A DNA stretch of 40,402 nt from a virus. Taxonomy: Duplodnaviria; Heunggongvirae; Uroviricota; Caudoviricetes. The position numbers were made by a program, and so were the translations under genes. Location: the IMG/VR virus record IMGVR_UViG_2529292883_000006; one strand, written 5' to 3'. The notes under the pieces were generated by a model. That model was not told the DNA's origin. It searched no databases and worked only from the letters and a program-made list of their open reading frames with translations. Positions within the stretch are counted from its first letter, which is position 1. Each line of letters begins with the position of its first letter. Positions 938-40,402 of this stretch are shown here, piece by piece.

Positions 938-1975
938 TTAACTACCCTCTAAAATCCCCACTTTGCCTCCAAAGTGTGGACACAATGTGGACATTCCCAC
1001 AAGAGGATTATAATTCACTGCATCCAATAAATAATCAGGTGCAAAATGAGCATATGTCATTGTTTGTGAAATATCTGCGTGACCAAGAATTCTTTGTAAC
1101 GCAATTATATTCCCGCCCTTCATCATAAAATGAGTAGCAAACGTATGACGCAATGCATGAGCTGCCTGACCATCAGGTAAATTAGGTTTTGCCTCTTTCA
1201 TTTTTAAACGAAAAGTTTTGTAACTCACACGAAAAAGTCGACCAGATTCGCGATGCCTTACAATATTTACAACCTCATCTGAAACGGGAACAACTCGCCG
1301 ATCACCATTTTTTGTAAGCGTAAATATAACCCTATTGCCCACAATGTTTTCGGCTTTGAGCTGATAAGCCTCACCCCACCTTGCACCAGTTGCAAGCAAG
1401 AGAACTGCAATCCGGAAATAATCACCAGAGCATAAGGATAATAACCGCTTAACCTCAGACTCAGTAAAGTAAGACATCTCAGTTTTTGGCTCTTTTAAAG
1501 CAGATATTGCCGCCACAGGATTTTCACCATGAAACTCATCGATCTCAGCCATCGCCTTAAACATACCGCTCAGGGCAAAAAGGTCATGGTTAATCGTTGA
1601 AGCCTTTATACCTTGCCCCAATCTATACGCCCGGTATTCGATAAGGCATCGACCATCAATCTGGTAAATCATGGGATCCCCCATATCCTGGCAAATACAG
1701 CTTAACGCACTAAGCCTACGATTAGCGTAGTTCTTATTACGTCCAATGAGCTGCCACCACAAAGCGATAAACTCACTCAGTCGCCGCTTGTCTGCTGGAC
1801 GACTCAGGTAGTCATGGTTTTGATACTTTGCAATGATGCTTCGTTCAAAAGCATGCGCCTCCGCTTTTCTCTCAAACTTCCGCCGGATACGCTTTCCGTC
1901 GCGCCCGCGCGGCCTTACATCCACTTCATAGCGACCATCTTCGAGCTTCTTAACAGACACAAGAAGTCCCTCCAA
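938..1975 (-). CDS. int: Tyrosine site-specific integrase (P2 Int-like)
   Basis: 345 aa. The N-terminus KKLEDGRYEVDVRPRGRDGKRIRRKF and the C-terminal HALRHTFATHF...LQRILGHADISQTMTYAHF (catalytic R, H-x-x-R, Y) follow the phage-integrase pattern. It sits adjacent to attL. Confidence 0.9.
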   Translation of the reverse strand: MEGLLVSVKKLEDGRYEVDVRPRGRDGKRIRRKFERKAEAHAFERSIIAKYQNHDYLSRPADKRRLSEFIALWWQLIGRNKNYANRRLSALSCICQDMGDPMIYQIDGRCLIEYRAYRLGQGIKASTINHDLFALSGMFKAMAEIDEFHGENPVAAISALKEPKTEMSYFTESEVKRLLSLCSGDYFRIAVLLLATGARWGEAYQLKAENIVGNRVIFTLTKNGDRRVVPVSDEVVNIVRHRESGRLFRVSYKTFRLKMKEAKPNLPDGQAAHALRHTFATHFMMKGGNIIALQRILGHADISQTMTYAHFAPDYLLDAVNYNPLVGMSTLCPHFGGKVGILEGS

Positions 1976-8199: not shown

Positions 8200-8589
8200 A
8201 TGATTGACCATCATGACTTCGTAAAATGGGTGCGCCCACAGGACACCCGTCTGGCTCCCGTTCTCCAGGGATTATTTGATCTCTACATCCGTGGTCGTGA
8301 CAACAGAGCGCGCACTACAAAACCGGAGAATGCGGACACCCTTTATTTCACAGTAGACGACTGCTACCGCGTGGACTTCACACCACACGGACTGGCGTTG
8401 CACTGCCTGACACCGCACGGCGAATCACTGCTGGCGTATTACGACTCCCCGGCCTCCGTATTTGCGGCAATGCTGGCGCATCGCACTGCTGGCGGGTGTG
8501 CCTCGCTGAGTGAATACACCGCTGAGTTTAACCGCCTTTCCGCCCTCTTCTCACAGGAGTGGCAGCGCGTGACGGGATACCAGCCATGA
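8200..8589 (+). CDS. Hypothetical protein upstream of and coupled to gene A
   Basis: RBS agaggggag before the ATG. Its stop overlaps the gene A ATG (ATGA at 8586-8589). Confidence 0.55.
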   Translation: MIDHHDFVKWVRPQDTRLAPVLQGLFDLYIRGRDNRARTTKPENADTLYFTVDDCYRVDFTPHGLALHCLTPHGESLLAYYDSPASVFAAMLAHRTAGGCASLSEYTAEFNRLSALFSQEWQRVTGYQP

Positions 8590-11426
8590 GTGAGTTTGCA
8601 TGGAGCTGGAATGAACCACGGCCAGCCATTGATCCGGCCAGATTTACGGAGCGCAGGCAGGAAACTGAAACCGACCTGCAACGCGCCATCCGTTACTACC
8701 TTGAGGCAGACAAAAAGGCCCAGGAAGAACAGGAAGCGAAAGAGGAAGCCTTTTTCGCACAATCCGCCATGGGTAAAAAACTCATGGCATCCCTTGAGGA
8801 AGCCGGACAGCGTGAAGAGCTGGCACAAAGCATCATCAGCAAGCGTCAGGCAACAGAACAAGACCCGGTGGCCCGTGCTTTTGCCACACTGAAGGTGCTT
8901 CCCGTTTATCTGCGTGAACCACTGAGCCGCCGCCTCTCTTTTTTACGTAAGAAGCAGGAATCTGACCGCCAGAAAGGCAAAAAGAGTCGACCAGCAGAGG
9001 GCTACGCACGCGGAACCCTGCGCAAAATATTCGAACGTCTGGATCGCACTGACGGGCGCTGGCTGACACCGGGTTATCGCTCCCTTGCCGGACGCGAACG
9101 CCTGGACGATTTGCTTTACCTGCCGCAGCTCAACAAACACCAGATACAGACGCTGGCCACCATGACGGCGGCGATGTTCAGCAGCACCTTCGAAAAACTC
9201 TGCGATGGCTTTGGCGCGACCGATGGCGAACTGACCATGGATGTAACGCTGAAGGCGTATCAGATGCTGGCCCGCATGGCGTTACACCTGCACGCCATGC
9301 CTCCACATTATGACGCACTGACAACAGACAAAGACCAGAGGAACGAACCGGACACGGAGCTGCTGCCGGGCGCAATCCTTCGCCTGACCTGTGCAGAATG
9401 GTGGAAACGCAAACTGTGGCTGTTACGTTGCGAGTGGAGAGAAGAACAACTCCGCGCCGCCTGTCTGGTTTCCAGAAAAACATCGCCCTATCTGAGCCAG
9501 GACGCGTTAAGCGAGTTTCGCGCACAGCGCGAGAAAACACGCGATTTCCTGAAAAGTTTCATGCTGGAAAATGAAGACGGGTTCACGATTGATCTCGAGA
9601 CGGTGTATTACGCGGGAGTAAGTAACCCGGTTCACCGTAAGGCAGAAATGATGGCCACCATGAAGGGGCTGGAACTTCTGGCCGAAGCCCGTGGCGACAA
9701 AGCGGTGTTTCTGACTGTCACCTGCCCGTCAAAATACCACGCCACAACAGAGAACGGTCATCCGAATCCCAAATGGAACGGGGCCACCATGCGCGACTCC
9801 AGCGATTACCTGGTTAACACGTTTTTTGCGGCGGTCCGCAAAAAACTGAACCGCGACGGTCTTCGCTGGTATGGCATCCGCACGGTGGAGCCTCACCATG
9901 ACGGCACCGTGCACTGGCATATGATGGTCTTTGCTCATCCGGAAGAAATCGACAGCATCGTGGCCATCACCCGCGATATTGCCATTCAGGAAGACCGCCA
10001 CGAGCTGGGCAATGATATTACTCCGCGCTTTAAGGCAGAGTACGTCGACGGTTCGAAAGGTACGCCGACCAGCTACATCGCCACCTACATCGGAAAGAAC
10101 CTGGACAGCCGCGCCGTGGATGGCATTGACCCGAAAACAGGCAAACCGCGCATCGACGACGAATCAGGAAAGACGATGGCAGAAAGCGTGGAACGCGCCA
10201 TCGGCTGGGCGCGCCTTCACCGGGTCCGCCAGTTCCAGTTCTTTGGCATCCCTTCCCGTCAGGTGTGGCGTGAACTGCGCCGCCTTGCCTGTCAGATGGC
10301 ACGTAACCCACAGGGACCGCAACGTCTGGAAAATGACGCAATGGATGCGGTTCTTGCTGCCGCTGATGCCGGATGTTTTGCCACCTACATAGAGAAACAG
10401 GGCGGCGTGCTTGTTCCACGCAAAGACTACCTGATTCGCACCGCCTACGACCTCGCAGATGAACTGAACGATTACGGCGAGCAGAGTGTACAGATTTACG
10501 GGATCTGGTCGCCGCTCATCGGGGAGTCTTCCCGCGTGTGCACGCACCCGGATAACTGGAAGCTGGTAAGACGTAAACCGGAAGCGGAAGACAGCGCCCG
10601 CGAAAATGGTTTTGACCTTCAGGGCGGCCCTGCCGCCCCTTGGACTCGTGGCAATAACTGTCCCCGTGTACAGGAAACGGACAACAACGGGACAGAACAG
10701 CCGGAAGAACGGCCAGCACCGTGGCCGCAGCTCCCTGACGGCGTTGAAGTGAACGAATGGATGCGCTCACTGAAACGGCACGAACGCCGGGCGCTGATGC
10801 GTTCGCTGCGTGACAAACAGGCAAAAAACAGCAGTGATGAAATGCAGAGCTGGACACAGAGCCACAAACAGCCGCGACCTTTGCCTGATAACCACGAGTT
10901 ACTCGCTAAAGAATGGCGGGAGTCTGCCGAATCTCTCGGCCTGCATATCGGTGAACAGCAGATGCAGCACCTGTTACGGGGCGGCAGCCTGTACGTTGAC
11001 GGCAGCATCATTGCACCGCAGGGATTTGAAATTGTACGCAAACCGGATACCCGCCCGGACAGCCGAATCACGCAGCTCTGGCAACGCCTGAGCCGTAATC
11101 ACGGCGTAAGCAGCACGGAGATCCGCCATAACCCGGTCGCCGGCTATCTGGAGCAGCTGGGGGCATCAGACCCCGAAGCCGCCGCACGCCTGGCATCCAC
11201 ACTTCAGCAGGACCAGAACACCATGAAAACCCCCGTTACCGTGCTTTCTGACATGTTGCGCGCCATCCGTGACGCAGAGCACGCACAGAGAATCAGTGAA
11301 ACCACTGAACGCGCCCACCGCAAAGCAGACCTGCTGCGGGGTAGCCTGACCAGTGGAAACAAAAAACAGACAGAAACGGGATTCACAAATCCCGTAAATG
11401 AGCAAAAAACGTGCCGCGATATATGA
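8586..11426 (+). CDS. Rolling-circle replication initiator (P2 gpA-like HUH endonuclease), 946 aa
   Basis: HUH motif (GTVHWHMMVF) and paired catalytic tyrosines (SYIATYIGK). Position corresponds to P2 gene A. The start at 8586 is chosen from translational coupling. Confidence 0.85.
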   Translation: MSEFAWSWNEPRPAIDPARFTERRQETETDLQRAIRYYLEADKKAQEEQEAKEEAFFAQSAMGKKLMASLEEAGQREELAQSIISKRQATEQDPVARAFATLKVLPVYLREPLSRRLSFLRKKQESDRQKGKKSRPAEGYARGTLRKIFERLDRTDGRWLTPGYRSLAGRERLDDLLYLPQLNKHQIQTLATMTAAMFSSTFEKLCDGFGATDGELTMDVTLKAYQMLARMALHLHAMPPHYDALTTDKDQRNEPDTELLPGAILRLTCAEWWKRKLWLLRCEWREEQLRAACLVSRKTSPYLSQDALSEFRAQREKTRDFLKSFMLENEDGFTIDLETVYYAGVSNPVHRKAEMMATMKGLELLAEARGDKAVFLTVTCPSKYHATTENGHPNPKWNGATMRDSSDYLVNTFFAAVRKKLNRDGLRWYGIRTVEPHHDGTVHWHMMVFAHPEEIDSIVAITRDIAIQEDRHELGNDITPRFKAEYVDGSKGTPTSYIATYIGKNLDSRAVDGIDPKTGKPRIDDESGKTMAESVERAIGWARLHRVRQFQFFGIPSRQVWRELRRLACQMARNPQGPQRLENDAMDAVLAAADAGCFATYIEKQGGVLVPRKDYLIRTAYDLADELNDYGEQSVQIYGIWSPLIGESSRVCTHPDNWKLVRRKPEAEDSARENGFDLQGGPAAPWTRGNNCPRVQETDNNGTEQPEERPAPWPQLPDGVEVNEWMRSLKRHERRALMRSLRDKQAKNSSDEMQSWTQSHKQPRPLPDNHELLAKEWRESAESLGLHIGEQQMQHLLRGGSLYVDGSIIAPQGFEIVRKPDTRPDSRITQLWQRLSRNHGVSSTEIRHNPVAGYLEQLGASDPEAAARLASTLQQDQNTMKTPVTVLSDMLRAIRDAEHAQRISETTERAHRKADLLRGSLTSGNKKQTETGFTNPVNEQKTCRDI

Positions 11427-13457: not shown

Positions 13458-13502
13458 AACCCGGAACGGGTGCGCAAATTCTTTGTGCGCCCGTTCCGGG
13501 TT
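13458..13502. terminator. Bidirectional stem-loop terminator between convergent genes
   Basis: 16-bp stem cccggaacgggtgcgca / tgcgcccgttccggg. T-run on the minus-strand side. Confidence 0.55.
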
Positions 13503-13522
13503 GGACAAGCGAAGCGCGTCAG

Positions 13523-13780
13523 CTATCCGGCCTGCAACAACTCCAGAGCCATTTGTTTTTCTTCCGGACGCATCCGCTCAATCAACAGCTTTAACACACC
13601 ATTCTCCAGCCCGCTGGGCACCAGTGTGTGCGAGTAGGTCAGATTCATCACCCAGGTATGTCCGCACTCGAGACGGGTGCAACGGTAATAAACATCTGCA
13701 AAGCGATCATCTTTCCAGAAGGTCTTCTCAATCACTGCGCGTTCACCACAGCAAAAACATCGCGCTTTTTGTCTGCGCAT
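13523..13780 (-). CDS. Ogr/Delta-family zinc-finger late-gene activator (start uncertain, ORF extends to 13849)
   Basis: C-x2-C ... C-x4-C arrangement (CFCCGERA...YYRCTRLECGH) typical of Ogr/B/Delta. It lies directly downstream of the portal gene on the minus strand. Confidence 0.65.
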   Translation of the reverse strand: MRRQKARCFCCGERAVIEKTFWKDDRFADVYYRCTRLECGHTWVMNLTYSHTLVPSGLENGVLKLLIERMRPEEKQMALELLQAG

Positions 13781-13845
13781 TTTCCACCTCCCAGAGCAGC
13801 GTTTTCCTGCAGCTGATTTTACCTGCTCTTTTCGCATGTCGCACA

Positions 13846-14880
13846 TCACTCCGGGGGCTCATCAAATTCAAGAATAAATTTCACCTCCCCCAGTCGCCTG
13901 ATATCCGGGTCACTGTTGATTCCCTCCATAATCAGGCGGCGCATCGGAATAACCTCATCCCTGTAATATGCCTCGCGGGATTTCAGTGGGTCACCAAGCC
14001 CGGCCGTATTTGCGGGAATGATGCCGGCAAGTCCGGGTGGGAAACGGTGCGCAACGAGCTGATCCTGGGCACTGATGGTTTTTATATTCAGGAACTCATC
14101 TTTTGTACCTGAATCCCCGATAGGGATCACCTTAACGCCTTCTTTGTCTCCGCCCGGTATATTGATAAACATGGATTTAAAATTGCCCGCCCCTTTTGAC
14201 GCCTCTATCTTTTTACGGAATTCCGCCTCGAGCTCGGGATCCATGTCCGGGTCAGTGGAATACAGGATATAACCAAGATGTGCGCCGTTCTTGTAATACT
14301 TGCGGCGAAAGCGGGTGGCATCCACATTCAGCATGGCGGATTCCATCCCGTGAATATAATCCGGGACACCGTAAACCTGCTGTTGCGGGTCATAAATGGC
14401 CACGAACACCACTTCGCCTGGCGGGTAAACGAGATCTTCCAGTGCCGCCTGCACAATCACCGTGCCACCCTCGTTGTTACGCCGCAGGTACAGAGAAGGT
14501 AACGTATGCAGGCGCACCACTCGACCGAAGCCATTGCGCACTTTAAGCAACCCCATATCCCCGAATATCAGCAGATTGGTTACTGCTGCCGCCATGGCGG
14601 CGAGTGTCATACCACCACCACCCCGAAAACCCTGCATGATCATATTGACGCGCGCACGCAATACCGCGCCGTGATACGGTGCGATATTGGACAACATGGC
14701 GAGATCCATGCGCTCAATGGGCGGCGTGTACCAGCCGTTATAGCCATCCCAGAGCGAGCCGTAATAACAGCCCCATGCAGCGACCGGTTCCGGGTCACCA
14801 AATTCAATAAAAGTCATTTTGCTGGCTGTTTTTTTTGCCACGCCATCGTGTAACACGGGGTATTTTTTCTTTTTACTCAT
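13846..14880 (-). CDS. Portal protein (P2 gpQ-like)
   Basis: 344 aa, same length and position as P2 Q. Transcribed divergently from the scaffold/capsid genes. Confidence 0.9.
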   Translation of the reverse strand: MSKKKKYPVLHDGVAKKTASKMTFIEFGDPEPVAAWGCYYGSLWDGYNGWYTPPIERMDLAMLSNIAPYHGAVLRARVNMIMQGFRGGGGMTLAAMAAAVTNLLIFGDMGLLKVRNGFGRVVRLHTLPSLYLRRNNEGGTVIVQAALEDLVYPPGEVVFVAIYDPQQQVYGVPDYIHGMESAMLNVDATRFRRKYYKNGAHLGYILYSTDPDMDPELEAEFRKKIEASKGAGNFKSMFINIPGGDKEGVKVIPIGDSGTKDEFLNIKTISAQDQLVAHRFPPGLAGIIPANTAGLGDPLKSREAYYRDEVIPMRRLIMEGINSDPDIRRLGEVKFILEFDEPPE

Positions 14881-16660
14881 CTGACAGGATCCATGTTGAT
14901 TTGCGCTTGTGCTTATAGTTCAGGGGTTCATTACTTGCGGCATGAGCTATGGCAAAGAAGATGTCAGCGTGCCCGGTTTCTTCGCTACGTTCGGCGGTGA
15001 AAGTGACTTTATTGCCGCTGTTGGTGGATTCCTGACGAATGGCCAGGAACGATGCCGGAATATCCGTGGCTTCTTCATCCCACTCAATACGGTTGGCGTA
15101 AATCAGATCCAGCATCTTCATCACCAGGCGGTTTTTGGATTCCACGCTGTAATGAATGGCCACTGTTTCACGGCGGGCAAATCCCTGAACCAGCTCAAAG
15201 ACACCGTAGCCAAGACCGGTGACGTCAATGCCGATAAACGTCATGTTATAGCGTGCTTTAATGCTGCGTATACGCTCTGCCATAAACTGGAATGACATGC
15301 TGCGCCAGTGGTGTTTTTCCAGCACGCGGAATCGTTCTGCCGCAACCAGCGGCGGTGCCAGCACTACAAATGTGGCGTTATCGCCGGAGCGCGCAGGGTC
15401 AAAGCCGCCCCAAACCTCACGGTTACCAAATGGCATGGACTCTTCCGGGTGAAAATCCTCCCACGTACTGACATCAACACCACAACGCACAAGATCATCA
15501 AATTTAAAGACGCTCTCTTTGTCATCCACAAACACACACATAAACAGCATATTGAACGCTGTTTCGTTGTATCGCTCGCGCAGCTCGTTGATGTCAGCAA
15601 GGTTAAAGCCGCCGGCAATGGCATCTTCCAGCGTAACCACATAGCGCCACTGACCATCCGGACATTCACGCCCACCATCGCGCAGCTCATCAAAGGACGG
15701 AAACTCAACCCCTTTTCGTTTCGGATCGCCTTTGCGCCATTCATCGCCAGACCAGAACGGGTAACCCTGGTGTGTTTTGGATGACGGCGTGGAGAAATAG
15801 GTAATGCGCCAGTGTTTATGGGTGGCCATCCCTGACGCCACTTCATTGAGACGGCGAAAACCGGGGATCCACAGGTATTCATCAATATACAGGTGGCCGC
15901 TGTTTGACTGCGCTGTGTTACTGTTGGTCGCCAGAAAATACAGTTCAGCCAGATTACTTAACTTAACCGGATTGCCTTTAATGGGAATGCCAAACTCTGT
16001 TTGTGCAATTTTTACAATATAAGTACGGAACACTTCGGCCTGACGTTTTGATGCCGATAAAAATATCTGTGTGTCGCCGGTTAATACTGCATCTTCAAAT
16101 GCCTCAAACGCGAAGTAATACGTCGCCCCAATCTGGCGGGATTTAAGCAGGTTGCGTACACGGCGGAATTTGTTTTCACGCAGGAGCAACTGGTAAGTAA
16201 ACAACTTTTTCGTAAACGGCTCAAAACTTTCAGCAGTCAGTCCGGAAACGTCATTAGCTTTGCGGGGGCGCTCTTTCTTACCTGCACCTTTTTCTCCGCG
16301 TTCTTCTTTTCCATAACGACCAGACTGGGGAATATCCGCTCCCATTCGTTCAATCTCGGCCATTCGTTCCGTGTGCTTGTTCCTGACCGACATCAGTTTG
16401 ACGTGATGGCCAATCAGGCGATCGAGTTCATCGTGTTCTTCCGGCGTTTTATGATCACGCTCCGCCAGTACAGCGAGACGACGGGCGATAACATCCTCCA
16501 CGCCTTCAGTATTAAGCTGTGTGTACCACTCAAACTTTGTCGCCCAGTAATAAACAATTCGCGGGCTGTTCAGTCCGAGTTTCTTTTGTATTTCTTTTGG
16601 TGTGTGCCTTTTCAGATAGAGCGATTTTGCAGCAGCAATCACCTCATCAGAATACGCCAT
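14873..16660 (-). CDS. Terminase large (ATPase) subunit (P2 gpP-like)
   Basis: 595 aa, upstream of the portal on the same strand. P2-type head-gene arrangement. Confidence 0.9.
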   Translation of the reverse strand: MAYSDEVIAAAKSLYLKRHTPKEIQKKLGLNSPRIVYYWATKFEWYTQLNTEGVEDVIARRLAVLAERDHKTPEEHDELDRLIGHHVKLMSVRNKHTERMAEIERMGADIPQSGRYGKEERGEKGAGKKERPRKANDVSGLTAESFEPFTKKLFTYQLLLRENKFRRVRNLLKSRQIGATYYFAFEAFEDAVLTGDTQIFLSASKRQAEVFRTYIVKIAQTEFGIPIKGNPVKLSNLAELYFLATNSNTAQSNSGHLYIDEYLWIPGFRRLNEVASGMATHKHWRITYFSTPSSKTHQGYPFWSGDEWRKGDPKRKGVEFPSFDELRDGGRECPDGQWRYVVTLEDAIAGGFNLADINELRERYNETAFNMLFMCVFVDDKESVFKFDDLVRCGVDVSTWEDFHPEESMPFGNREVWGGFDPARSGDNATFVVLAPPLVAAERFRVLEKHHWRSMSFQFMAERIRSIKARYNMTFIGIDVTGLGYGVFELVQGFARRETVAIHYSVESKNRLVMKMLDLIYANRIEWDEEATDIPASFLAIRQESTNSGNKVTFTAERSEETGHADIFFAIAHAASNEPLNYKHKRKSTWILSDE

Positions 16661-18790: not shown

Positions 18791-19501
18791 ATGCCAACGC
18801 CAATGCAGCGACAACGTGCCCGACAGATGGATGAGCGCCGTGCGGCGCTCATGACCAGAACGGACGGGAGCGCCATCAGCACAGAGAGTCAGCACATTAA
18901 GCTGCTGGCACTGGATAACGACATCAGACAACTGCACAACATGGAGCTGCTGTCTGACAAGCTGGAATTCAAACGGAACACGCTGCTGCCCCGCTGGCTG
19001 CCACACGCACAGGCTTATCTGGAGGGGGAACGCGTCTATCAGAATCCCATTCTGGTGTACTGCATCATCTGGCTGTTCGATACCGGGCAGTTTGAGATGG
19101 CGCTGCGGTGGGCTGACATTGCCATTGAGCAGGGGCAAAAGACGCCGGAGAACTTCAAAAGCGAGCTGCCAACGTTTGTGGCCCATTTCATTCTTGAATG
19201 GGCAGAAACCGAAGCTGAACGCGGGAACAGTATCGCGCCATATTTTCAGCAGGTGTTTGAAAAAATCCGTGACAAATGGCGCGTGAATGAACGCCTTGCT
19301 GCCCGCTACTGGCGCTTTGCAGGCGTCCTGCTGCTGCGCGGCGATGACGGTAAACCGCTGGCCAGTGCAATTAACGATCCGGAGAGACTGCAACAGGCCG
19401 ACCAGTGTCTGGAACAGGCTGCCTGGCTGCATCCAAAAATTCAGGTGAAAACCCTGCGCCAGCGCATTGCCGCAAGACTGCGCGCGTTGCAGGGCACGTA
19501 A
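18791..19501 (+). CDS. Terminase small (endonuclease) subunit (P2 gpM-like)
   Basis: 236 aa at the P2 M position in the O-N-M-L operon. Confidence 0.8.
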   Translation: MPTPMQRQRARQMDERRAALMTRTDGSAISTESQHIKLLALDNDIRQLHNMELLSDKLEFKRNTLLPRWLPHAQAYLEGERVYQNPILVYCIIWLFDTGQFEMALRWADIAIEQGQKTPENFKSELPTFVAHFILEWAETEAERGNSIAPYFQQVFEKIRDKWRVNERLAARYWRFAGVLLLRGDDGKPLASAINDPERLQQADQCLEQAAWLHPKIQVKTLRQRIAARLRALQGT

Positions 19502-32475: not shown

Positions 32476-33185
32476 AATGGGAAAAGGCAATTCTGCGCCC
32501 GTCAGCCATGAACATTAAATGTTCAGTGGTTTGCCTTCATCCATGGTCAGAGAATACCGGAAACATCACACCATCGGGGCGTTATCTCAGCCCCGAAAAT
32601 GCTGTATCTGCACTTTTACCCTATCTGAAAGAAAGCACAGAAAAGGACATTGTGGCGCTGTTATTTTGCGCCCCTTCTGCTGGCGAGTTTTTATCACTCG
32701 CCAGGCAATTTTCAGGCGCTTTTCCGTTGCCAGAGGTGGGGCGAATGTCCCGCATGATTTCCAGTCAACTTTCACTGGCCATCAGCAGAATGCAAATCCC
32801 CGCCAGACCGGCAACATCACTTCCGGAACCGATAATGCTGTCGACACAGACCACTCGCAGCATGTCGCTGGCAGCAACCATTGCACAGGCAGCCACTCCT
32901 GCCGCCACATCACCGGAAACATTGTCATCATTACTGCGTCAGTTCATGAATGCGAGAGATAAAGCCTTACAGGAAATCGCTGATCAGCAGGCTGCACTCC
33001 GGCAAAAATTTTGCCCGGTGTGGCGCTTTTGCTACAAGGGAGCCCTTAGCCAGGCCGAAGTGCTGATACAAAAAAACATCCCACACCCCGAGTGGGTTTT
33101 TACAGCTGTGATGCTGTTCGTCGGCGATAATCTCTCATCACTAAGGGAAGCACTACATGACCCAGATGATTGTCCTTGCGCTTGA
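32472..33185 (+). CDS. Hypothetical protein in tail operon
   Basis: 237-aa coupled ORF. No recognisable family. Confidence 0.4.
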   Translation: MKWEKAILRPSAMNIKCSVVCLHPWSENTGNITPSGRYLSPENAVSALLPYLKESTEKDIVALLFCAPSAGEFLSLARQFSGAFPLPEVGRMSRMISSQLSLAISRMQIPARPATSLPEPIMLSTQTTRSMSLAATIAQAATPAATSPETLSSLLRQFMNARDKALQEIADQQAALRQKFCPVWRFCYKGALSQAEVLIQKNIPHPEWVFTAVMLFVGDNLSSLREALHDPDDCPCA

Positions 33186-33732
33186 CGGGGAAGCCATTCT
33201 GCTGCGCAACATCACCGTCAGCGCCACCATGCAACTACCGGACAAAGATATGTCCGGACAGTCAACCAGCACCACGAGCGCCCAGCAGGGAAACAAGGCT
33301 AAAGAGCTGCGCGTGTCGGGGGTTATTGATTTTAACGATGAAGCTATTCTGACCCGTATTTTTCAGCTTGCGGAGGCAACAGAAAGCAACGGTGCTAAAA
33401 AAACATATCGCATTGCTAACGCTACCGCGAAGGCAATCAATATGCGACAGGGGGTATTTTCTGGTGGCATTGATGCCACGGAACAACAGGGAAAAATGCA
33501 CTGGCAGATCACCTTTACTCTCAGGGAAAAATTAAGCGTGCCAGAGAAAGCATCCGCACGCAGCGGTTCGCAGAAAACCATCGCCAGACAGCAGACCCAG
33601 AATGGCAGCGAACAGGCACCAGACAAAGGCATGAATACGCAAAGTTCGTTCTGGAAAAAAATCAATGATGCCGTTGGCTCTGGTCTGGATGCTGTTGGCA
33701 TCGGGAGCGTGAAAGAGGAAGGGAAAACATGA
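33157..33732 (+). CDS. Hypothetical tail-associated protein
   Basis: 191-aa ORF coupled to the downstream hub-like gene. Confidence 0.4.
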   Translation: MTQMIVLALDGEAILLRNITVSATMQLPDKDMSGQSTSTTSAQQGNKAKELRVSGVIDFNDEAILTRIFQLAEATESNGAKKTYRIANATAKAINMRQGVFSGGIDATEQQGKMHWQITFTLREKLSVPEKASARSGSQKTIARQQTQNGSEQAPDKGMNTQSSFWKKINDAVGSGLDAVGIGSVKEEGKT

Positions 33733-35426
33733 AATTAATACAACGCTGCATGATTAATGGCGAACGGGTGGAAATTGCCGATATAAACCTTGTTCTTACC
33801 CTGAATGCTGCCGGTCGTGGCTTCATTTCTGTTAACAATCTGTCACCAGAAAAAAGCTTTGCCGGCGCAATGGTACAAATTGACCTCGGCCGTGACGGTG
33901 AAGCATGGCGCTATTTCTCCGGCTACATTGAGCGCGATCAACCTGCTGAAAATGGCTCACGTCGTCTTTTTATCCGCGAAGCAGCTGCGGTGCTGGATTT
34001 TGATTTCCCTTGCTCCATGCAACACCCGACATTGCGGGGGGTGCTCGATAATCTGGGGCGACAAAGCGGTATCGTTTTTATCACTCCGGATGCAGATTAT
34101 TCCAGCATACCAACTCCCTATATCACCCACAGCGGCAGCGGGACGCAGTTACTTAGCCAGCTGGGGCGTGCATTCAGAATCAGCGATTACGTCTGGCACC
34201 CTATGCCGGACGGTTCTGTATTTGTGGGAAGCGCAGCTGATTCACGATTTGCCAGTATTACGATGCCGGATATTCCGCAACAGTACACACTCGGGCAAAG
34301 CGGCGGAAACAGCATCGACATCATGTTTATGGAAACTGTGCGACCGGGCGTGAACCTACCGGCAGGGCGCATTACCCGTGTAGCCCTCAACAACGAGAAA
34401 ATGACCCTGACATGGGAGCGCCTTACCGCCACGGGTAACCCTGTTTCCAAATCACCATTACGCAGACAAATGGAAACACAGTTCCCGGAACTGGCCAGCG
34501 GTACGCTACATACCCGGCTGGCGCGCGTCATTGCGCCAACGGAGCCCACCACCCTGGGCGATGTGGCCGACAGTTTCCGCCCACGCTACGCCGTCGATGT
34601 GCAGTTGCTTGATGAGAACGGCAACGATAAAAGCGACACGCCCGTTTACCCGGCAGTACCGCTCCCCGTCCCCATGGCTGGCAGTGAGGCGGGATGTTAT
34701 GCCTACCCGCCAGCAGGCACCATCGTGGAAATATCCAACATTGAAGGACGTCCGGACAAACCTGTTATCAGGCAAATCTTACCCGCTGGCCATAACCTGC
34801 CTGATGTAAAGCCCGGCGAACAGCTGCAGCAACAGCGCGCAGAAGTGTTTCAGCGCGTCACGACTGACGGAAGCTGGCACAGAGAAACCGATCAGCAAAT
34901 CAGGGAGCATTCAGCCAGACGAACCATTAACAGCGATCAGGAAGAACGCACAACAACAACCAGAACAACAACAGTACAGGCAAACGACATAACCAGCGTT
35001 CTGGGAACCAGCAAAGTAATGGCAGGGCAAATAGAGCACCTTACTACCGGCCATTACGCGATCGCAGCCAGTGAGCATATCCAGATGGTAGCGCAGGATT
35101 TGCTGACCAAACTTAAAGGAGCAACGTCAACGATTGAACGTGACCTTACTGAAAACGTGGGAGGCCGCAGAACATGCAGGGCGGACGGCGGTCTGGAGTT
35201 TACCGCCCCGACAGTATTTATTGGTCGCGGTGGCTCACGGGAAAAATCCGGACTTAATCTGCTTACGTTACTGATTGATATTCTGGATCTGATTCAATTA
35301 CTGGCCACACACACCGCAAACCATACCCATAGCAATACCGGCTCACCAACAAACAGCAGCGAACTTGCCGCAGATGCCCTGCAAGCCACGAGGCTGCGCG
35401 AAAAATACGGCGATATTATCGCCTGA
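33729..35426 (+). CDS. Putative baseplate hub / late control gpD-like tail protein
   Basis: 565 aa, last gene of the tail operon, followed by a strong intrinsic terminator. Function inferred from position and size. Confidence 0.4.
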   Translation: MKLIQRCMINGERVEIADINLVLTLNAAGRGFISVNNLSPEKSFAGAMVQIDLGRDGEAWRYFSGYIERDQPAENGSRRLFIREAAAVLDFDFPCSMQHPTLRGVLDNLGRQSGIVFITPDADYSSIPTPYITHSGSGTQLLSQLGRAFRISDYVWHPMPDGSVFVGSAADSRFASITMPDIPQQYTLGQSGGNSIDIMFMETVRPGVNLPAGRITRVALNNEKMTLTWERLTATGNPVSKSPLRRQMETQFPELASGTLHTRLARVIAPTEPTTLGDVADSFRPRYAVDVQLLDENGNDKSDTPVYPAVPLPVPMAGSEAGCYAYPPAGTIVEISNIEGRPDKPVIRQILPAGHNLPDVKPGEQLQQQRAEVFQRVTTDGSWHRETDQQIREHSARRTINSDQEERTTTTRTTTVQANDITSVLGTSKVMAGQIEHLTTGHYAIAASEHIQMVAQDLLTKLKGATSTIERDLTENVGGRRTCRADGGLEFTAPTVFIGRGGSREKSGLNLLTLLIDILDLIQLLATHTANHTHSNTGSPTNSSELAADALQATRLREKYGDIIA

Positions 35427-35463
35427 TCACCAGACATAAAAGCCACATAAGCGCCCATCACAC

Positions 35464-35490
35464 AACGCACGGCACCGGCCGTGCGTTTTT
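35464..35490 (+). terminator. Rho-independent terminator of the tail operon
   Basis: 10-bp stem aacgcacggc / gccgtgcgtt with an accg loop, followed by tttt. Confidence 0.6.
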
Positions 35491-36099
35491 CGTATCTGCC
35501 ACCTGATTAATGCGTTCTGCGTGCCATTCTGGCGCTGTATGCACACACTGCGTAAACGGTGTAACGTAAAGCGTGAGGTGACGTAAACCGCGCTACCCCC
35601 TCCAACCCGCGGGTTTTGTCTCGAAACACTTTTTCAGTTTTCTGCCGTGCAAAAATGACCGCCAGCCCGCGCAGCAACTGAGGGAAAAGCGAAGATCTGA
35701 AATTTCACGTTTTGAAATTTTTTGCAGTTTTCAGAGGGATTTTTACGATCTCATGAATGGCAGGAGAAAGAAAACAGGCTGATATTAAAAGAGTTTTTAT
35801 ACTTTACGTGGGACAAGACACGATCGCGAAAGGATCGCGTTAAACAACCCTCAAACAAAGAAGCCCGACGTAGCGCGGCCTGCGCAAAATCAAGAGTCAG
35901 AATTAAACTGAAAAAAGGATCAATACCGCGCCTCGATAGCACATGACGATCTACGCAGCAACAGGACGAAAAAAACCGGCGCGAACGCCGGCGGAAGCAT
36001 GTATCAAATGCGTGACTGAATAATGTCTGCGGTCGGGAATTTTACATCAGAAGGCTGATAAGTCTCAACGGATTGAAACAAGGGAAAAAACCAGGCTAG

Positions 36100-36460
36100 A
36101 ATTCGCGCGGGTGCCTTTCGGCTGATGGCTGGAGGGAATACCTGAAGGCCGGATGTGGAAAGGCCCCGGAAAACATTTTTGTTTAACCGAGGCCCTAACC
36201 ATCTACCCTAGACAAGTGATAGGTTAGCGCCTCCCCGAAAAAGGAGCAAGCGCTATGTCGCAAAAATCGCTTACGGCCATTACGTTCTGCGTGACGGCAA
36301 TCCTCATCATCTGGATGCTACACGGTTCGCTGTGTGAGATACGGATGAGCTTCTGGGGAGCGGAGTTTGCGGCGTTCTTACAGTGTAAACAGTAAGGAAA
36401 CCGCGACGGGGGAGCAATCCCCCGTCAATCGGTTGCTAAGGTAAGGTCGTAAAGGCACCC
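36100..36460. ncRNA. hok/sok-like type I toxin-antitoxin locus (mRNA with 5'/3' fold-back elements; antisense RNA expected on the minus strand)
   Basis: The 5' element gggtgccttt (36108-36117) is exactly complementary to the 3' element aaaggcaccc (36451-36460), as in hok mRNA fold-back inhibition. A GC hairpin lies at 36405-36426. Confidence 0.45.
36255..36395 (+). CDS. hok: Hok/Gef-family membrane toxin (46 aa)
   Basis: Translation MSQKSLTAITFCVTAILIIWMLHGSLCEIRMSFWGAEFAAFLQCKQ has the N-terminal TM helix and SLCEIR...AAF motif of Hok/Gef. AGGAG RBS. Confidence 0.65.
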   Translation: MSQKSLTAITFCVTAILIIWMLHGSLCEIRMSFWGAEFAAFLQCKQ

Positions 36461-36593
36461 TATCTTCTAACATATGAGTGGAAAATCCTACGGGGAAAAA
36501 TGTAAACCTCGTCCTTGCCCACTCATAAGAAGAAATTATCATTTCACTATTCGATTTTCAAAGAATCAATGTAGGTAAAAAGAAGATAGCTAT

Positions 36594-37166
36594 ATGACTA
36601 AATATATTTTTGCTCTTTATTTTATATTATTTGGTAATACGAAACATCTATTCGAATGCTGGAAAGTTGAAGTCATCCGTCGCGATCGATTTTTAATTCA
36701 TCGCCTACTAAGAGAGAAGAGATCACGCTCAAGAAAATACATCTTCTGGTGGAGACTTGCAAATGAAATGTTTATCCATGGCGGGAAATATACAAAAAAA
36801 GCAGCGAAGAAAATCAACCGCAAATTACTCAGTGAATACAGCTGTGATCTTGGTCTAGGGCTGACCGTTGGCAAGGGTCTGACAATTATCCATCACACGG
36901 GCATCGTTGTTACCAGTACGGCAATCATTGGAGAAAATCTGACCATCAGACAAAATACAACCATTGGTCGTAGTCAATCGGATAATGAACACGATAGAAT
37001 AACAATTGGCAATAACGTTGATATTGGCGCCCACTCATTCATTCTGGGCTCTGGTTTTAAAATTGGAGATAATGTCAAGATCGGGGCAATGTCATTTATC
37101 ATGGATGAAATTCCTTCAAACTGTACTTATGTCACCCGGAAAGAATCAAGGATAATATCTAAGTAA
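36594..37166 (+). CDS. Hexapeptide-repeat acetyltransferase (serine O-acetyltransferase / CysE-like left-handed beta-helix)
   Basis: Repeated [LIV]-G-x4 hexapeptides (GLTVGKGLTIIHHTGIVVTSTAIIGENLTI...IGNNVDIGAHSFILGSGFKIGDNVKIGAMSFI). AT-rich relative to the prophage core. Confidence 0.7.
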   Translation: MTKYIFALYFILFGNTKHLFECWKVEVIRRDRFLIHRLLREKRSRSRKYIFWWRLANEMFIHGGKYTKKAAKKINRKLLSEYSCDLGLGLTVGKGLTIIHHTGIVVTSTAIIGENLTIRQNTTIGRSQSDNEHDRITIGNNVDIGAHSFILGSGFKIGDNVKIGAMSFIMDEIPSNCTYVTRKESRIISK

Positions 37167-37287
37167 AATTAAAACTCAACCAATTACCACAAAAAACGCA
37201 GCGTAAAATCATGTGTTTACTTTTTGCCCCCTTGAGGGGGCATTTAAATATCAACAACATTCACAAAAACGAACTAATAAAACGAAA

Positions 37288-37604
37288 TCACTCCCCATTC
37301 TCCCGCTTCCATTGCTGGATCATTTCATCGGTGACATCACTCCCATAACATATCACGTTATATCCTCCACTACGACTATATGCACTGCGCCACCACATCT
37401 ACTACCATTCCTTGCATAATTATAAGGACACGCACAATTACCTGGATACGATTCAATAGATTCTTTAATTATTTCTTTCTTGATCTGAGCGTCAGACTTT
37501 TCAGTTGCCGCATATCCACCAAAAGACACCAAACAAAGGCAGATTACTATTAATAAACCACATCGCATACAGATACTCTCTATCAATAACCAATCACAAA
37601 TCAC
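37288..37604 (-). pseudogene. Small Cys-rich secreted protein with apparent frameshift
   Basis: The 37353-37604 ORF has a signal-peptide-like N-terminus and Cys-rich motif (GNCACPYNYARNGSRCGG). A second frame starting at the GG stays open to 37288 (RSAYSRSGGYNVICYGSDVTDEMIQQWKRENGE). Confidence 0.35.
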
Positions 37605-37818
37605 CTCATAAATTGATATGAGGAGTGCAACGCCTTAAGCAGGAAGACGCAACCTCGATAATATGCAGTGCAATTCAACAAAAAAAGAACTATATCAAAG
37701 AGATAGCACCCTTATCAGTGCTGCAAACACTAGCGTTTGCAGCAACAAAAAACAACAAATCAGTCGAAATGTGGACACTATGTGGACGCTGATTAAATAA
37801 TCCTTTCCTAATCAACAA

Positions 37819-37846
37819 ATTAATTTCTTGACCTTCCCCTTGCTGG
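37819..37846. repeat. attR core (right copy of 28-bp direct repeat)
   Basis: Exact repeat of 852-879. It is followed by the intact copA promoter sequence. Confidence 0.7.
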
Positions 37847-37860
37847 AAGGTTTAACCTTT
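37828..37860 (+). promoter_or_regulatory. copA promoter with CueR (MerR-type) operator dyad
   Basis: -35 ttgacc followed by the dyad ccttcc-N7-ggaagg (accttccccttgctggaaggt) and tttaacc, ~40 bp upstream of the copA ATG. The long spacer is typical of MerR-family promoters. Confidence 0.7.
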
Positions 37861-37897
37861 ATCACAGCCAGTCAAAACTGTCTTAAAGGAGTGTTTT

Positions 37898-40402
37898 ATG
37901 TCACAAACTATCGACCTGACCCTGTACGGCCTGTCCTGCGGTCACTGCGTTAAACGCGTGAAAGAAAGTCTCGAACAGCGCCCGGATGTGGAACAAGCGG
38001 ATGTGTCTATCACTGAAGCGCACGTTACCGGGACTGCCAGTGCAGAACAGCTGATCGAAACTATCAAACAAGCGGGTTATGACGCATCTGTAAGCCACCC
38101 AAAGGCTAAACCGCTGGCGGAGTCATCAATCCCGTCGGAAGCACTGACAGCGGTTTCTGAGGCGCTTCCGGCAGCGACCGCCGATGACGATGACAGCCAG
38201 CAGTTGCTGCTGAGCGGCATGAGCTGCGCCAGCTGTGTCACCCGCGTACAAAATGCGTTGCAAAGCGTACCGGGCGTCACTCAGGCACGGGTAAACCTGG
38301 CGGAGCGTACTGCGCTGGTGATGGGCAGTGCCTCCCCACAAGATTTAGTGCAGGCGGTGGAAAAAGCGGGCTACGGCGCGGAAGCGATTGAAGATGACGC
38401 GAAACGCCGCGAGCGCCAGCAAGAAACCGCCGTCGCTACGATGAAGCGCTTCCGCTGGCAGGCAATTGTTGCACTGGCGGTGGGTATCCCGGTAATGGTC
38501 TGGGGGATGATCGGCGATAACATGATGGTCACCGCTGACAACCGCAGCCTGTGGTTGGTTATCGGCCTGATAACCCTGGCGGTAATGGTTTTCGCCGGCG
38601 GCCATTTTTACCGCAGTGCATGGAAAAGCCTGCTGAACGGTGCGGCGACGATGGATACGCTGGTGGCGCTGGGTACGGGTGTGGCGTGGCTCTATTCGAT
38701 GAGCGTCAACCTGTGGCCGCAGTGGTTCCCGATGGAAGCGCGGCATCTTTACTATGAAGCCAGTGCGATGATTATCGGTCTGATTAATCTCGGTCATATG
38801 CTGGAAGCGCGCGCACGTCAGCGTTCTTCTAAGGCGCTGGAGAAATTACTCGATTTAACCCCACCGACGGCGCGCCTGGTTACTGACGAAGGTGAAAAAA
38901 GCGTGCCTCTGGCAGAAGTGCAGCCAGGTATGTTGCTGCGCCTGACGACCGGCGACCGCGTGCCAGTAGATGGCGAGATTACCCAGGGCGAAGCATGGCT
39001 GGATGAAGCGATGCTGACGGGCGAACCTATCCCGCAGCAAAAAGGCGAAGGCGATAGCGTCCATGCCGGGACAGTGGTACAGGACGGTAGCGTTCTGTTT
39101 CGCGCCAGTGCGGTTGGCAGCCATACCACGCTATCAAGGATTATTCGTATGGTGCGCCAGGCCCAGAGCAGCAAGCCAGAAATCGGTCAGCTGGCGGATA
39201 AAATCTCAGCCGTATTTGTGCCGGTAGTAGTGGTGATTGCGCTTTTCAGTGCGGCAATCTGGTATTTCTTTGGTCCGGCACCGCAGATTGTCTATACCCT
39301 GGTGATTGCCACCACGGTGCTGATTATTGCCTGTCCGTGTGCGCTGGGGCTGGCGACGCCGATGTCGATTATTTCCGGCGTCGGGCGGGCGGCTGAGTTT
39401 GGCGTGCTGGTGCGGGACGCCGACGCGCTACAACGCGCCAGTACACTCGATACCGTCGTGTTCGATAAAACCGGGACGCTGACCGAAGGGAAGCCGCAGG
39501 TTGTCGCAGTGAAAACATTTGCTGATTTTGACGAAGCGCAGGCGCTGCGTCTGGCGGCGGCACTGGAACAAGGTTCCAGCCATCCGCTGGCGCGGGCGAT
39601 CCTCGATAAAGCAAGCGATATGCAGCTGCCGCAGGTCAACGGTTTCCGCACATTGCGCGGGCTGGGCGTGAGCGGTGAAGCTGAAGGTCATGCGTTATTG
39701 CTGGGCAATCAGGCGCTGTTAAATGACCAGCAAGTTGATACTAAAGCGATTGAAGCAGATATTTCAGCTCAGGCATCGCAAGGGGCAACGCCTGTGCTGC
39801 TGGCGGTTGACGGGAAAGCGGTAGCCCTGCTGGCTGTACGCGATCCGTTGCGTAGTGATAGCGTGGCGGCGCTGCAACGTCTGCATAAAGCGGGATATCG
39901 TCTGGTGATGTTGACCGGGGATAACCCAACCACCGCCAATGCGATCGCCAAAGAAGCCGGGATTGATGAGGTGATAGCCGGGGTGCTGCCAGACGGTAAA
40001 GCCGAAGCGATCAAACGTCTGCAAAGTGAAGGACGTCAGGTGGCAATGGTGGGCGACGGCATTAACGACGCGCCAGCGCTGGCCCAGGCGGATGTCGGCA
40101 TTGCAATGGGCGGCGGCAGTGATGTTGCCATTGAAACCGCGGCGATTACCCTGATGCGCCATAGCCTGATGGGCGTTGCGGATGCGCTCGCTATTTCCCG
40201 CGCAACGCTGCGCAACATGAAGCAGAACCTGCTCGGCGCGTTTATCTACAACAGTATCGGTATTCCGGTCGCCGCCGGTATTTTGTGGCCGTTTACTGGA
40301 ACACTGCTTAACCCGGTAGTTGCCGGAGCGGCAATGGCGCTCTCGTCGATTACCGTAGTGAGTAACGCCAACCGGTTGCTGCGGTTTAAACCGAAGGAAT
40401 AA
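37898..40402 (+). CDS. copA: Copper-exporting P1B-type ATPase CopA
   Basis: 834 aa. Two N-terminal GMxCxxC metal-binding motifs (GLSCGHC, GMSCASC), CPC in the TM domain, DKTGT phosphorylation motif, GDGINDAP. Stop at the window end. Confidence 0.95.

Follow-up and report, generated by a model that had tools for sequence, protein, structure and literature searches.

A probable cos site beside the hok/sok cargo module of an HP1/ESSI-2-type Peduoviridae prophage in Escherichia

The cos site of phage lambda (cosQ-cosN-cosB) is built around a nicking site with partial dyad symmetry, which is flanked by repeated terminase-binding elements, and it extends over about 200 bp. The cos sites of HP1, HP2 and phiCTX adjoin attP and not the portal gene (Lavigne et al. 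2009, PMC2771037). The HP1 record (NC_001697) places cosL, annotated as TCCTTCCCC, at 1-9, attP at 251-694 and int from 698 onwards, with orf35 ending 192 nt before the right end; the ACG-type repeats of HP1 (of the CACGGAAA type) are found at -44, -31 and -14, with spacings of 13 and 17, and the HP2 record ends 4 nt past the HP1 end. The P2 cos site is flanked by gpA/old and the portal gene, and its 19-nt end, GGCGAGGCGGGGAAAGCAC, is rich in G; the P2 record duplicates this 19-nt cos at both ends, as the record of phage ESSI-2 does with the 15-nt segment CTACACCGCACCCGC, located 183 nt past orf35. The SW5 record ends with ...GGCGCTACACCGC and begins with GCACCCGCC, at the same place as the ESSI-2 ends, and the assemblies of ESSI2_ev015 and ev129 stop at ...GGCGCTAC. 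Only the core cos signal is common to P2 and P4, and a variable cargo hotspot adjoins it (Rousset et al. 2022, PMC9122126; PMC8628076), the shared core itself going back to Ziermann and Calendar 1990, as cited by Rousset et al. 2022, PMC9122126.

The DNA analysed here, called the window below, is the whole 40,402-nt stretch of the virus record IMGVR_UViG_2529292883_000006. It holds a complete HP1/ESSI-2-like Peduoviridae prophage, which has integrated into the copA promoter and in which int, gpA, ogr/Delta, the portal gene, the terminase genes and the P2-family capsid genes are followed by homologues of HP1 orf34 and orf35 (Table 1); genes for terminase subunits, portal, scaffold and capsid of the P2 family can all be detected. 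The orf35 homologue (33729-35426) encodes a 565-aa protein that shares 45-47% identity with the baseplate proteins of Cronobacter ESSI-2, Salmonella SW5 and SI7 and Yersinia vB_YenM_324 (YenM324), and 42% with its HP2 counterpart. Given this resemblance, and the name 'baseplate protein' used in related phage records, the first-pass annotation was mistaken in calling this gene a tail terminator. Between its stop codon and a hok/sok locus lies the interval that concerns us here, 35491-36100, over which RefSeq has no feature in any of the 53 E. coli genomes that contain it. We propose that the segment from about 35500 to 35920 is very probably the cos site of this HP1/ESSI-2-type prophage and that the rest of the interval is the left edge of the hok/sok cargo module. 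What was computed here in support of this reading is the position of the segment, its homology to annotated phage ends, the purifying selection acting on it, its sharing with satellites and the presence of the terminase genes; cutting at the site, the exact cut positions and the pairing of proteins with motifs are predictions made from the sequence. Since the ogr/Delta-like gene abuts the portal gene, there is no room for a P2-type cos at that place.

The predicted cohesive-end segment begins 167 nt past the orf35 stop, and in HP1 and HP2 the cos site similarly lies about 170-190 nt past that stop, on the attP/int side. Aligned with the phage ends, the window reads GACGTAAACCGCG, then the predicted segment CTACCCCCTCCAACCCGC, then GGGTTTTG...TTTTTCAGTTTT; the interval 35548-35642 matches, motif by motif, both the cohesive end that is annotated in HP1 and the 15-nt repeat at the ESSI-2 termini, with the HP1 cosL and the ESSI-2 repeat both aligning with the window segment at 35593-35610. 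Further features that HP1 and HP2 have in common with the window are ACG(G/T)AAA repeats left of the cut, spaced by 13-14 and 17 nt (in the window they fall at -29 and -12 from the start of the cohesive segment), a C-rich cohesive segment, a T5-6CAG motif at +35 to +37 and P2-family terminase genes. The core, however, is annotated in HP1 as TCCTTCCCC and predicted in the window as CTACCCCCTCCAACCCGC, and attP follows cos after 250 nt in HP1, whereas about 2.2 kb of cargo, made up of hok/sok, an acetyltransferase and an 83-aa ORF, separates cos from attR in the window. The layout of the ESSI-2 group (ESSI-2, SW5, SI7 and YenM324) is colinear with that of the window from -45 to +320, and includes GAC(G/A)(G/A)AAAC at -12 (found in SW5, YenM324 and ESSI-2, in the last as GACAAAAAC), CTAC..CC...ACCCGC, T5CAG at +38, a GC-rich dyad near +70, an AATTTCA dyad near +120, ATTAAAAGAGTTTTT near +190 and an inverted T5CAG near +320; in YenM324, the same module comes after an extra cargo gene. 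This group differs from the window in that identity between the baseplate proteins is limited to about 46%, no DNA match is obtained with blastn, the window core is about 3 bases longer and, in ESSI-2, a LexA-box-like site and a small ORF follow cos in place of hok.

Several of these motifs keep their distance from the predicted cut across lineages. The satellites described below, ESSI-2 (+38), YenM324 (+38) and HP1 (+35) all have the direct T5CAG, within +35 to +38, and P2 has T6CAG at +47, while the inverted T5CAG recurs at +315 to +320 in satellites, ESSI-2 and YenM324. AATTTCA-type dyads fall at +105 to +125, the same place as in ESSI-2 and YenM324. Satellites, SW5 and HP1 also contain an inverted ACG(G/T)AAA at +209 to +219, always in the G or T variant of their own lineage; because the copy at about +210 is mutated in several close relatives of the prophage, it is, tentatively, probably dispensable. 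The link to known cos sites was made only through orf35 homologues located at the protein level and through record ends, and the homology is one of motifs and layout without a long alignment; a blastn search in distant mode of 50,697 phage records gave no match to the stretch. In contrast to P2, the predicted cos site of the window comes after the baseplate genes and beside attR. Its general plan is similar to that of lambda cos, without a sequence relation and without an IHF consensus in this region of the window. Cleavage and the length of the overhang are predicted from relatives whose cores differ, i.e., 15 nt in the ESSI-2 record, 9 nt as annotated in HP1 and 19 nt in P2.

Table 1. Features of the prophage and of the interval between orf35 and hok, with window coordinates (pi, mean pairwise difference among relatives; positions given as cos +n are counted from the start of the predicted cohesive segment).
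Feature	Position	Strand	Remarks
att cores, 28-bp direct repeat ATTAATTTCTTGACCTTCCCCTTGCTGG	852-879 and 37819-37846		attL/attR, just upstream of copA
Integrase	938-1975		
Paired TGTGGACR arm repeats	975-993 and 37770-37788		Pairs nowhere else; none in the stretch
gpA replication protein	8559-11426		
ogr/Delta-like gene	13523-13849		Directly beside the portal gene
Large terminase subunit, gpP-like	14873-16660		Pfam Terminase_6N, Terminase_6C, Terminase_5
Small terminase subunit, gpM-like	18791-19501		Pfam Phage_term_smal
HP1 orf34 homologue (Pfam PF25759) and orf35 homologue	33157-35426		Right end of the prophage
Intrinsic terminator of the late (tail/baseplate) operon	35464-35492	+	Hairpin 35464-35487; 10-bp stem with 7 G-C pairs, then a T-run
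Low-diversity block, proposed functional cos region	35502-35726		pi 0.004-0.056, lowest at 35577-35601
ACGTAAA-type direct repeats GCGTAAAC, ACGTAAAG, ACGTAAAC	35550-35588	+	Spacing 14 and 17 nt; candidate terminase recognition sites
Predicted cohesive-end segment CTACCCCCTCCAACCCGC (cosN equivalent)	35593-35610		C-rich; overlaps the 12-bp palindrome AACCCGCGGGTT; predicted cut positions
T5CAG motif TTTTTCAGTTTT	35630-35641	+	cos +37
A/T-rich dyad: TGAAATTTCA, second TGAAATTT and T-run	35698-35723		Right arm of the predicted cos, +105 to +130
Variable segment	35727-35901		pi 0.06-0.18
Inverted ACGTAAA copy	35803-35809	-	About cos +210
Conserved island	35902-35926		pi 0.019
Inverted T5CAG (AAACTGAAAAAAG on the + strand)	35905-35917	-	cos +316; in the conserved island (bin 35902-35926)
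Candidate small RNA, about 65 nt	35967-36033	-	Conserved 5' part, then terminator hairpin and a run of 5-8 T
Minus-strand terminator	Stem 35975-35992	-	7-bp stem with 6 G-C pairs, UUCG loop, T7
Conserved island	35977-36026		pi 0.000-0.017
Promoter-like site TTGAGA-18-TAAAAT	36039-36068	-	10 of 12 matches; back to back with the hok promoter
hok promoter TTGAAA-18-TAGAAT	36073-36102	+	Conserved in relatives, satellites and plasmid hok loci
hok/sok type I toxin-antitoxin locus	36109-36435	+	Outside the stretch, sets its right border; hok CDS 36255-36395

Of 5426 complete E. coli genomes, 53 (about 1%) contain the stretch, 41 of them with full coverage, at 89-97% identity; it is also present in 23 IMG/VR loci and in E. 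albertii. When genome contigs were scanned with the 24-nt cos core, E. albertii alone matched among the species representatives, so that no distant relatives were gained for covariation. Diversity was calculated as pi in 25-nt bins over 22 distinct relatives (Table 1), and among these, variation in the block 35502-35726 is 4-5 times lower than at the synonymous sites of the neighbouring gene, orf35 having a pi of 0.123 at third and 0.027 at first codon positions. Such a low pi in DNA that is non-coding indicates that the left block is under constraint; it could partly come from a recent recombinational spread of the block and not from selection alone. A structured RNA was also considered for the conserved block and was ruled out, as single-strand folding of 35488-35740 was no better than that of shuffled sequences on either strand (z = -0.43 and +0.16), and a conserved block without an unusual fold points to a site that acts at the DNA level.

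The low-diversity block coincides with a block of homology to satellites. Four satellite loci at different chromosomal sites (L003, L005, L016 and L031) are 78-87% identical to 35464-35731; the homology begins exactly at the late-operon terminator (35464), and a 45-nt core, 35572-35616, is identical in them. These loci carry an ogr/Delta-like gene, an integrase, a P4 alpha-like primase (phrog_1139) and an AlpA-like excisionase, a search for a terminase gene in the four of them found none, and their upstream protein is unrelated to orf35. As P4-like E. coli satellites carry the same core, the terminase of the prophage could package them. The likeness to P2 and P4 lies in a packaging core shared by helper and satellites, here 35464-35731, and in cargo that varies, here after 35921. 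The relatives may have hok/sok alone; hok and a hexapeptide acetyltransferase, as in the window; or hok followed by a Com-like regulator and a DNA methyltransferase, between which one relative has a TM2-domain protein; in yet another arrangement hok is replaced by a YafO toxin-antitoxin system and an ATP-dependent nuclease. The conserved block stays beside orf35 whatever cargo follows, including in L004 and L025, two alleles in which hok is replaced and which diverge at 35921, just past the inverted T5CAG.

That some 600 bp are non-coding here, as the first-pass annotation had stated, is borne out: there is no ORF longer than 74 aa and none that is conserved, the longest between 35426 and the hok promoter (36073) being one of 74 aa on the plus strand (35722-35946, TTG start) and one of 63 aa on the minus strand (35751-35942). 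Both overlap the variable middle of the stretch, which evolves near the neutral rate (pi 0.06-0.18), and one might see in this a degraded pseudogene that makes up the whole stretch or at least its middle (35736-35900). However, the two ORFs are disrupted by stops or frameshifts in most of the 34 related sequences, and the variable alignment columns are distributed over the three codon phases as 27/27/31, i.e., without codon periodicity. A pseudogene was looked for among the relatives, in Pfam and PHROG and by tblastn, and none was found: all ORFs of at least 25 aa in the stretch gave no Pfam or PHROG match at E < 0.04, and the small proteins encoded at the same position in ESSI-2, SI7 and YenM324 left no convincing trace when compared with the stretch by tblastn. 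The best E-values were 0.011 (YenM324 gp37, over 15 residues) and 0.024 (SI7 gp25), and the latter match reflects homology at the DNA level, as SI7 gp25 overlaps the cos DNA of SI7. With the RefSeq blank over the stretch in the 53 E. coli genomes added to this, we hold a pseudogene to be very improbable. A remnant attP arm or ogr region, as had been suggested for the stretch, is hardly credible either, even if in HP1-type phages attP closely follows orf35 and cos. The att cores and the paired arm repeats occupy 852-993 and 37770-37846 and are absent from the stretch, which lies 1.7 kb (right end) to 2.3 kb (left end) inside attR, so that it is not an att remnant. An IHF consensus is found at 37810-37822, outside the stretch, and none within it; the ogr/Delta-like gene is likewise located elsewhere (13523-13849), and 35427-36110 contains no Ogr-type TGT-N12-ACA dyad.

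A palindrome, TGAAATTTCA, had also been pointed out in the stretch, and it does exist, at 35698-35707 and not at 35702-35711, i.e., 4 nt further left, with the related GAAATTTTTT at 35714-35723. Taken alone, a 10-bp palindrome is not special here and no more than chance gives, since shuffles give 46 +/- 7 perfect ones where the whole window has 38, and 2 are found in the 610-bp region, where 0.73 are expected (P = 0.18). The other 10-bp palindrome of the region, which the first-pass annotation did not mention, is part of the 12-bp palindrome AACCCGCGGGTT at 35604-35615. With a second TGAAATTT at 35713-35720, TGAAATTTCA forms an inverted repeat with a 5-nt spacer, and the whole dyad (35698-35723) is conserved in close relatives and satellites; ESSI-2 and YenM324 have TGAAA-N4-TTTCA-type elements at the corresponding position. 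The dyad TGAAATTTCA / TGAAATTT resembles an operator, the cargo downstream is variable, and the hok promoter (36073-36102) stands next to a divergent promoter-like site (36068-36039), all of which would suit a stretch that is mainly a promoter or regulatory region for the downstream cargo, with the palindrome as its operator. This we consider improbable, as a consensus scan found no plus-strand promoter in 35427-36072, 375 nt separate the palindrome from the hok promoter downstream, and the conserved block is homologous to phage genome ends and keeps its place by orf35 under any cargo, also in L004 and L025, which are without hok. The earlier proposal of promoters for the downstream cargo is right as far as the hok promoter goes, which is inside the interval, and not for the bulk of the stretch, which we assign to cos. 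As part of a cos site, the palindrome, about 105 nt to the right of the predicted cut, most likely serves the packaging signal by binding a protein or bending the DNA.

The last approximately 150 bp of the interval are part of the neighbouring cargo module and include a minus-strand terminator with a conserved segment upstream of it, possibly a small RNA, and the hok promoter. The identity of the module itself is given by the Rfam sok family (RF01794), which matches 36109-36268 with 46.3 bits and E = 1.8e-8, below the gathering score of 59, by Pfam HOK_GEF for 36255-36395 (E = 4e-7) and by the RefSeq name 'Hok/Gef family protein' in relatives; in a search of 34500-38000 at E up to 1, Rfam matched only the hok/sok leader. 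To the left of hok, the minus strand of 35967-36068 may encode a small regulatory RNA that is divergent from hok, an idea that we put forward tentatively and that is compatible with a cos site at the left. A promoter-like site and a strong terminator are found about 65 nt apart, and 35977-36026 is almost invariant (pi 0-0.017) compared with its flanks (0.14-0.18), the small-RNA body and the terminator being nearly invariant and the promoter region varying. The length of the T-run differs among relatives, which excludes a coding role of 35967-36033, and a 25-aa ORF in this place is interrupted in the L011-type allele. The promoter-like hexamers at 36039-36068 are kept in most relatives but lost in the L011-type allele, L030, L004, L025 and the satellites lack the element, and it is found nowhere outside this prophage lineage, a scan of viral contigs with the small-RNA-like segment having returned only the same prophage loci. 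Rfam has no match for it, the single variable stem (L027) shows no compensatory change, and the predicted pairing with hok mRNA (RNAduplex) is no better than in shuffled controls; a simpler alternative is a terminator that insulates cos and the late genes from leftward transcription. A 26-aa hydrophobic ORF (35920-36000, minus strand) was examined as a type I toxin and ruled out because the length of its internal T-run varies among relatives.

If the site works as its layout suggests, then after induction and replication the terminase, consisting of the gpM-like (18791-19501) and gpP-like (14873-16660) subunits, would recognise the repeats that flank it and nick the C-rich core at about 35593-35610 in a staggered fashion; the virion DNA would thereby receive its cohesive ends, and packaging would start at the cut in the core. 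We view the stretch as ordinary but unannotated phage anatomy, a site of a known kind. It is rather unlikely, in our estimate, that the locus combines an undescribed Escherichia helper-satellite pairing via the cos block with a new prophage-borne small RNA (35967-36033, minus strand) back to back with hok. If this were true, P4-like satellites, which have a capsid-like gene of their own, would have taken the packaging signal of an HP1/ESSI-2-type helper and not that of P2, and satellites and helper would trade cos-adjacent cargo such as hok/sok.

Even as ordinary anatomy, the predicted site gives a packaging site to a prophage lineage carried by E. albertii and by 41-53 of the 5426 complete E. 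coli genomes (about 1%), and as RefSeq is blank over these 650 bp, annotators may now locate the genome ends of HP1/ESSI-2-like prophages. The conceptual gain is modest: the rule known from P2 and P4, a shared cos core with an adjoining cargo hotspot, would be extended to the HP1-type arrangement in which cos is beside attP. The identical 45-nt core may serve as a sequence handle for matching satellites to this helper.

The cos core of the prophage, 45 nt of identical sequence, is common to the P4-like satellites L003, L005, L016 and L031, which occupy differing sites in the E. coli chromosome and in which the hok/sok toxin-antitoxin locus adjoins this core (L003 4001-4994; L005; L016 552-1544; L031). 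Satellite L016 also has a second integrase gene, and its 373-aa protein matches PHROG 70 (major head protein). The palindrome AACCCGCGGGTT of the predicted cohesive-end segment does not vary in the satellites and hardly varies in close relatives. This palindrome was missing from the list of the first-pass annotation. GATC sites are also frequent here: the 684 bp of 35427-36110 contain six, where the mean density of the window (112 in 40402) would predict about 1.9, and two of them make a direct repeat. This frequency may be linked to Dam methylation.

Coordinates of features in the window and on related cos DNA
Feature	Position	Strand	Remarks
Perfect palindrome AACCCGCGGGTT	35604-35615		12 bp; within predicted cohesive-end segment
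Direct repeat GATCGCG-AAAG-GATCGCG	35822-35839		made by two GATC sites
att core ATTAATTTCTTGACCTTCCCCTTGCTGG	852-879 and 37819-37846		28 bp
Paired TGTGGACR arm repeats	975-993 and 37770-37788		flanking att cores
IHF consensus	37810-37822		flanking att core
Element with near-invariant 50-nt segment	35967-36068	-	with intrinsic terminator and promoter-like site
ogr/Delta-like zinc-finger gene, with hairpin	13458-13849	-	directly adjoins portal gene
SI7 gp25 (YP_009883358)	L036 5409-5573		54 aa; annotated 'hypothetical protein'; on SI7 cos DNA

The RefSeq records of two phages, L038 (NC_049395, ESSI2_ev015) and L046 (NC_049394, ESSI2_ev129), terminate in Nextera adapter sequence (CTGTCTCTTATACACATCTGACGCTGCCGACGA), which comes straight after GGCGCTAC in both and is contamination introduced where the assembly met the physical cos end. 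On the cos DNA of SI7, gp25 is probably a spurious ORF call; its tblastn comparison with the window region gave a weak match (E = 0.024), the only one mapping to the cos block. About 330 nt to the right of the cos of ESSI-2 (L042) lies a LexA-box-like dyad, TACTGTGTTTATATACAGT. Downstream of it, still on the cos side of attP, is an 88-aa ORF, and the pair is reminiscent of the SOS-controlled tum gene of phage 186. In P2, cos is found at the portal-adjacent position, whereas in the window prophage this position is occupied by the ogr/Delta-like gene, which lies behind a hairpin (~13458-13500) taken by eye as a terminator.

The prophage is inserted directly upstream of copA (start at 37898), and the att core overlaps a sequence recognisable as the CueR box and promoter of copA; this promoter seems to be left intact on the attR side.

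The minus-strand element lies next to the hok promoter in divergent orientation and may encode a small RNA of ~65 nt; no match of this candidate to a known family was found. When the DNA between cos and attR (35921-37818) was compared with that of relatives, including L004 (4497-8100), L007, L010, L011 and L012, the following variants were seen: hok/sok alone; hok with an acetyltransferase; hok, then a Com-like regulator and a DNA methyltransferase, which in one relative are separated by a TM2-domain protein; and hok replaced by a YafO toxin-antitoxin system and an ATP-dependent nuclease. The interval from cos to attR is a cargo hotspot.
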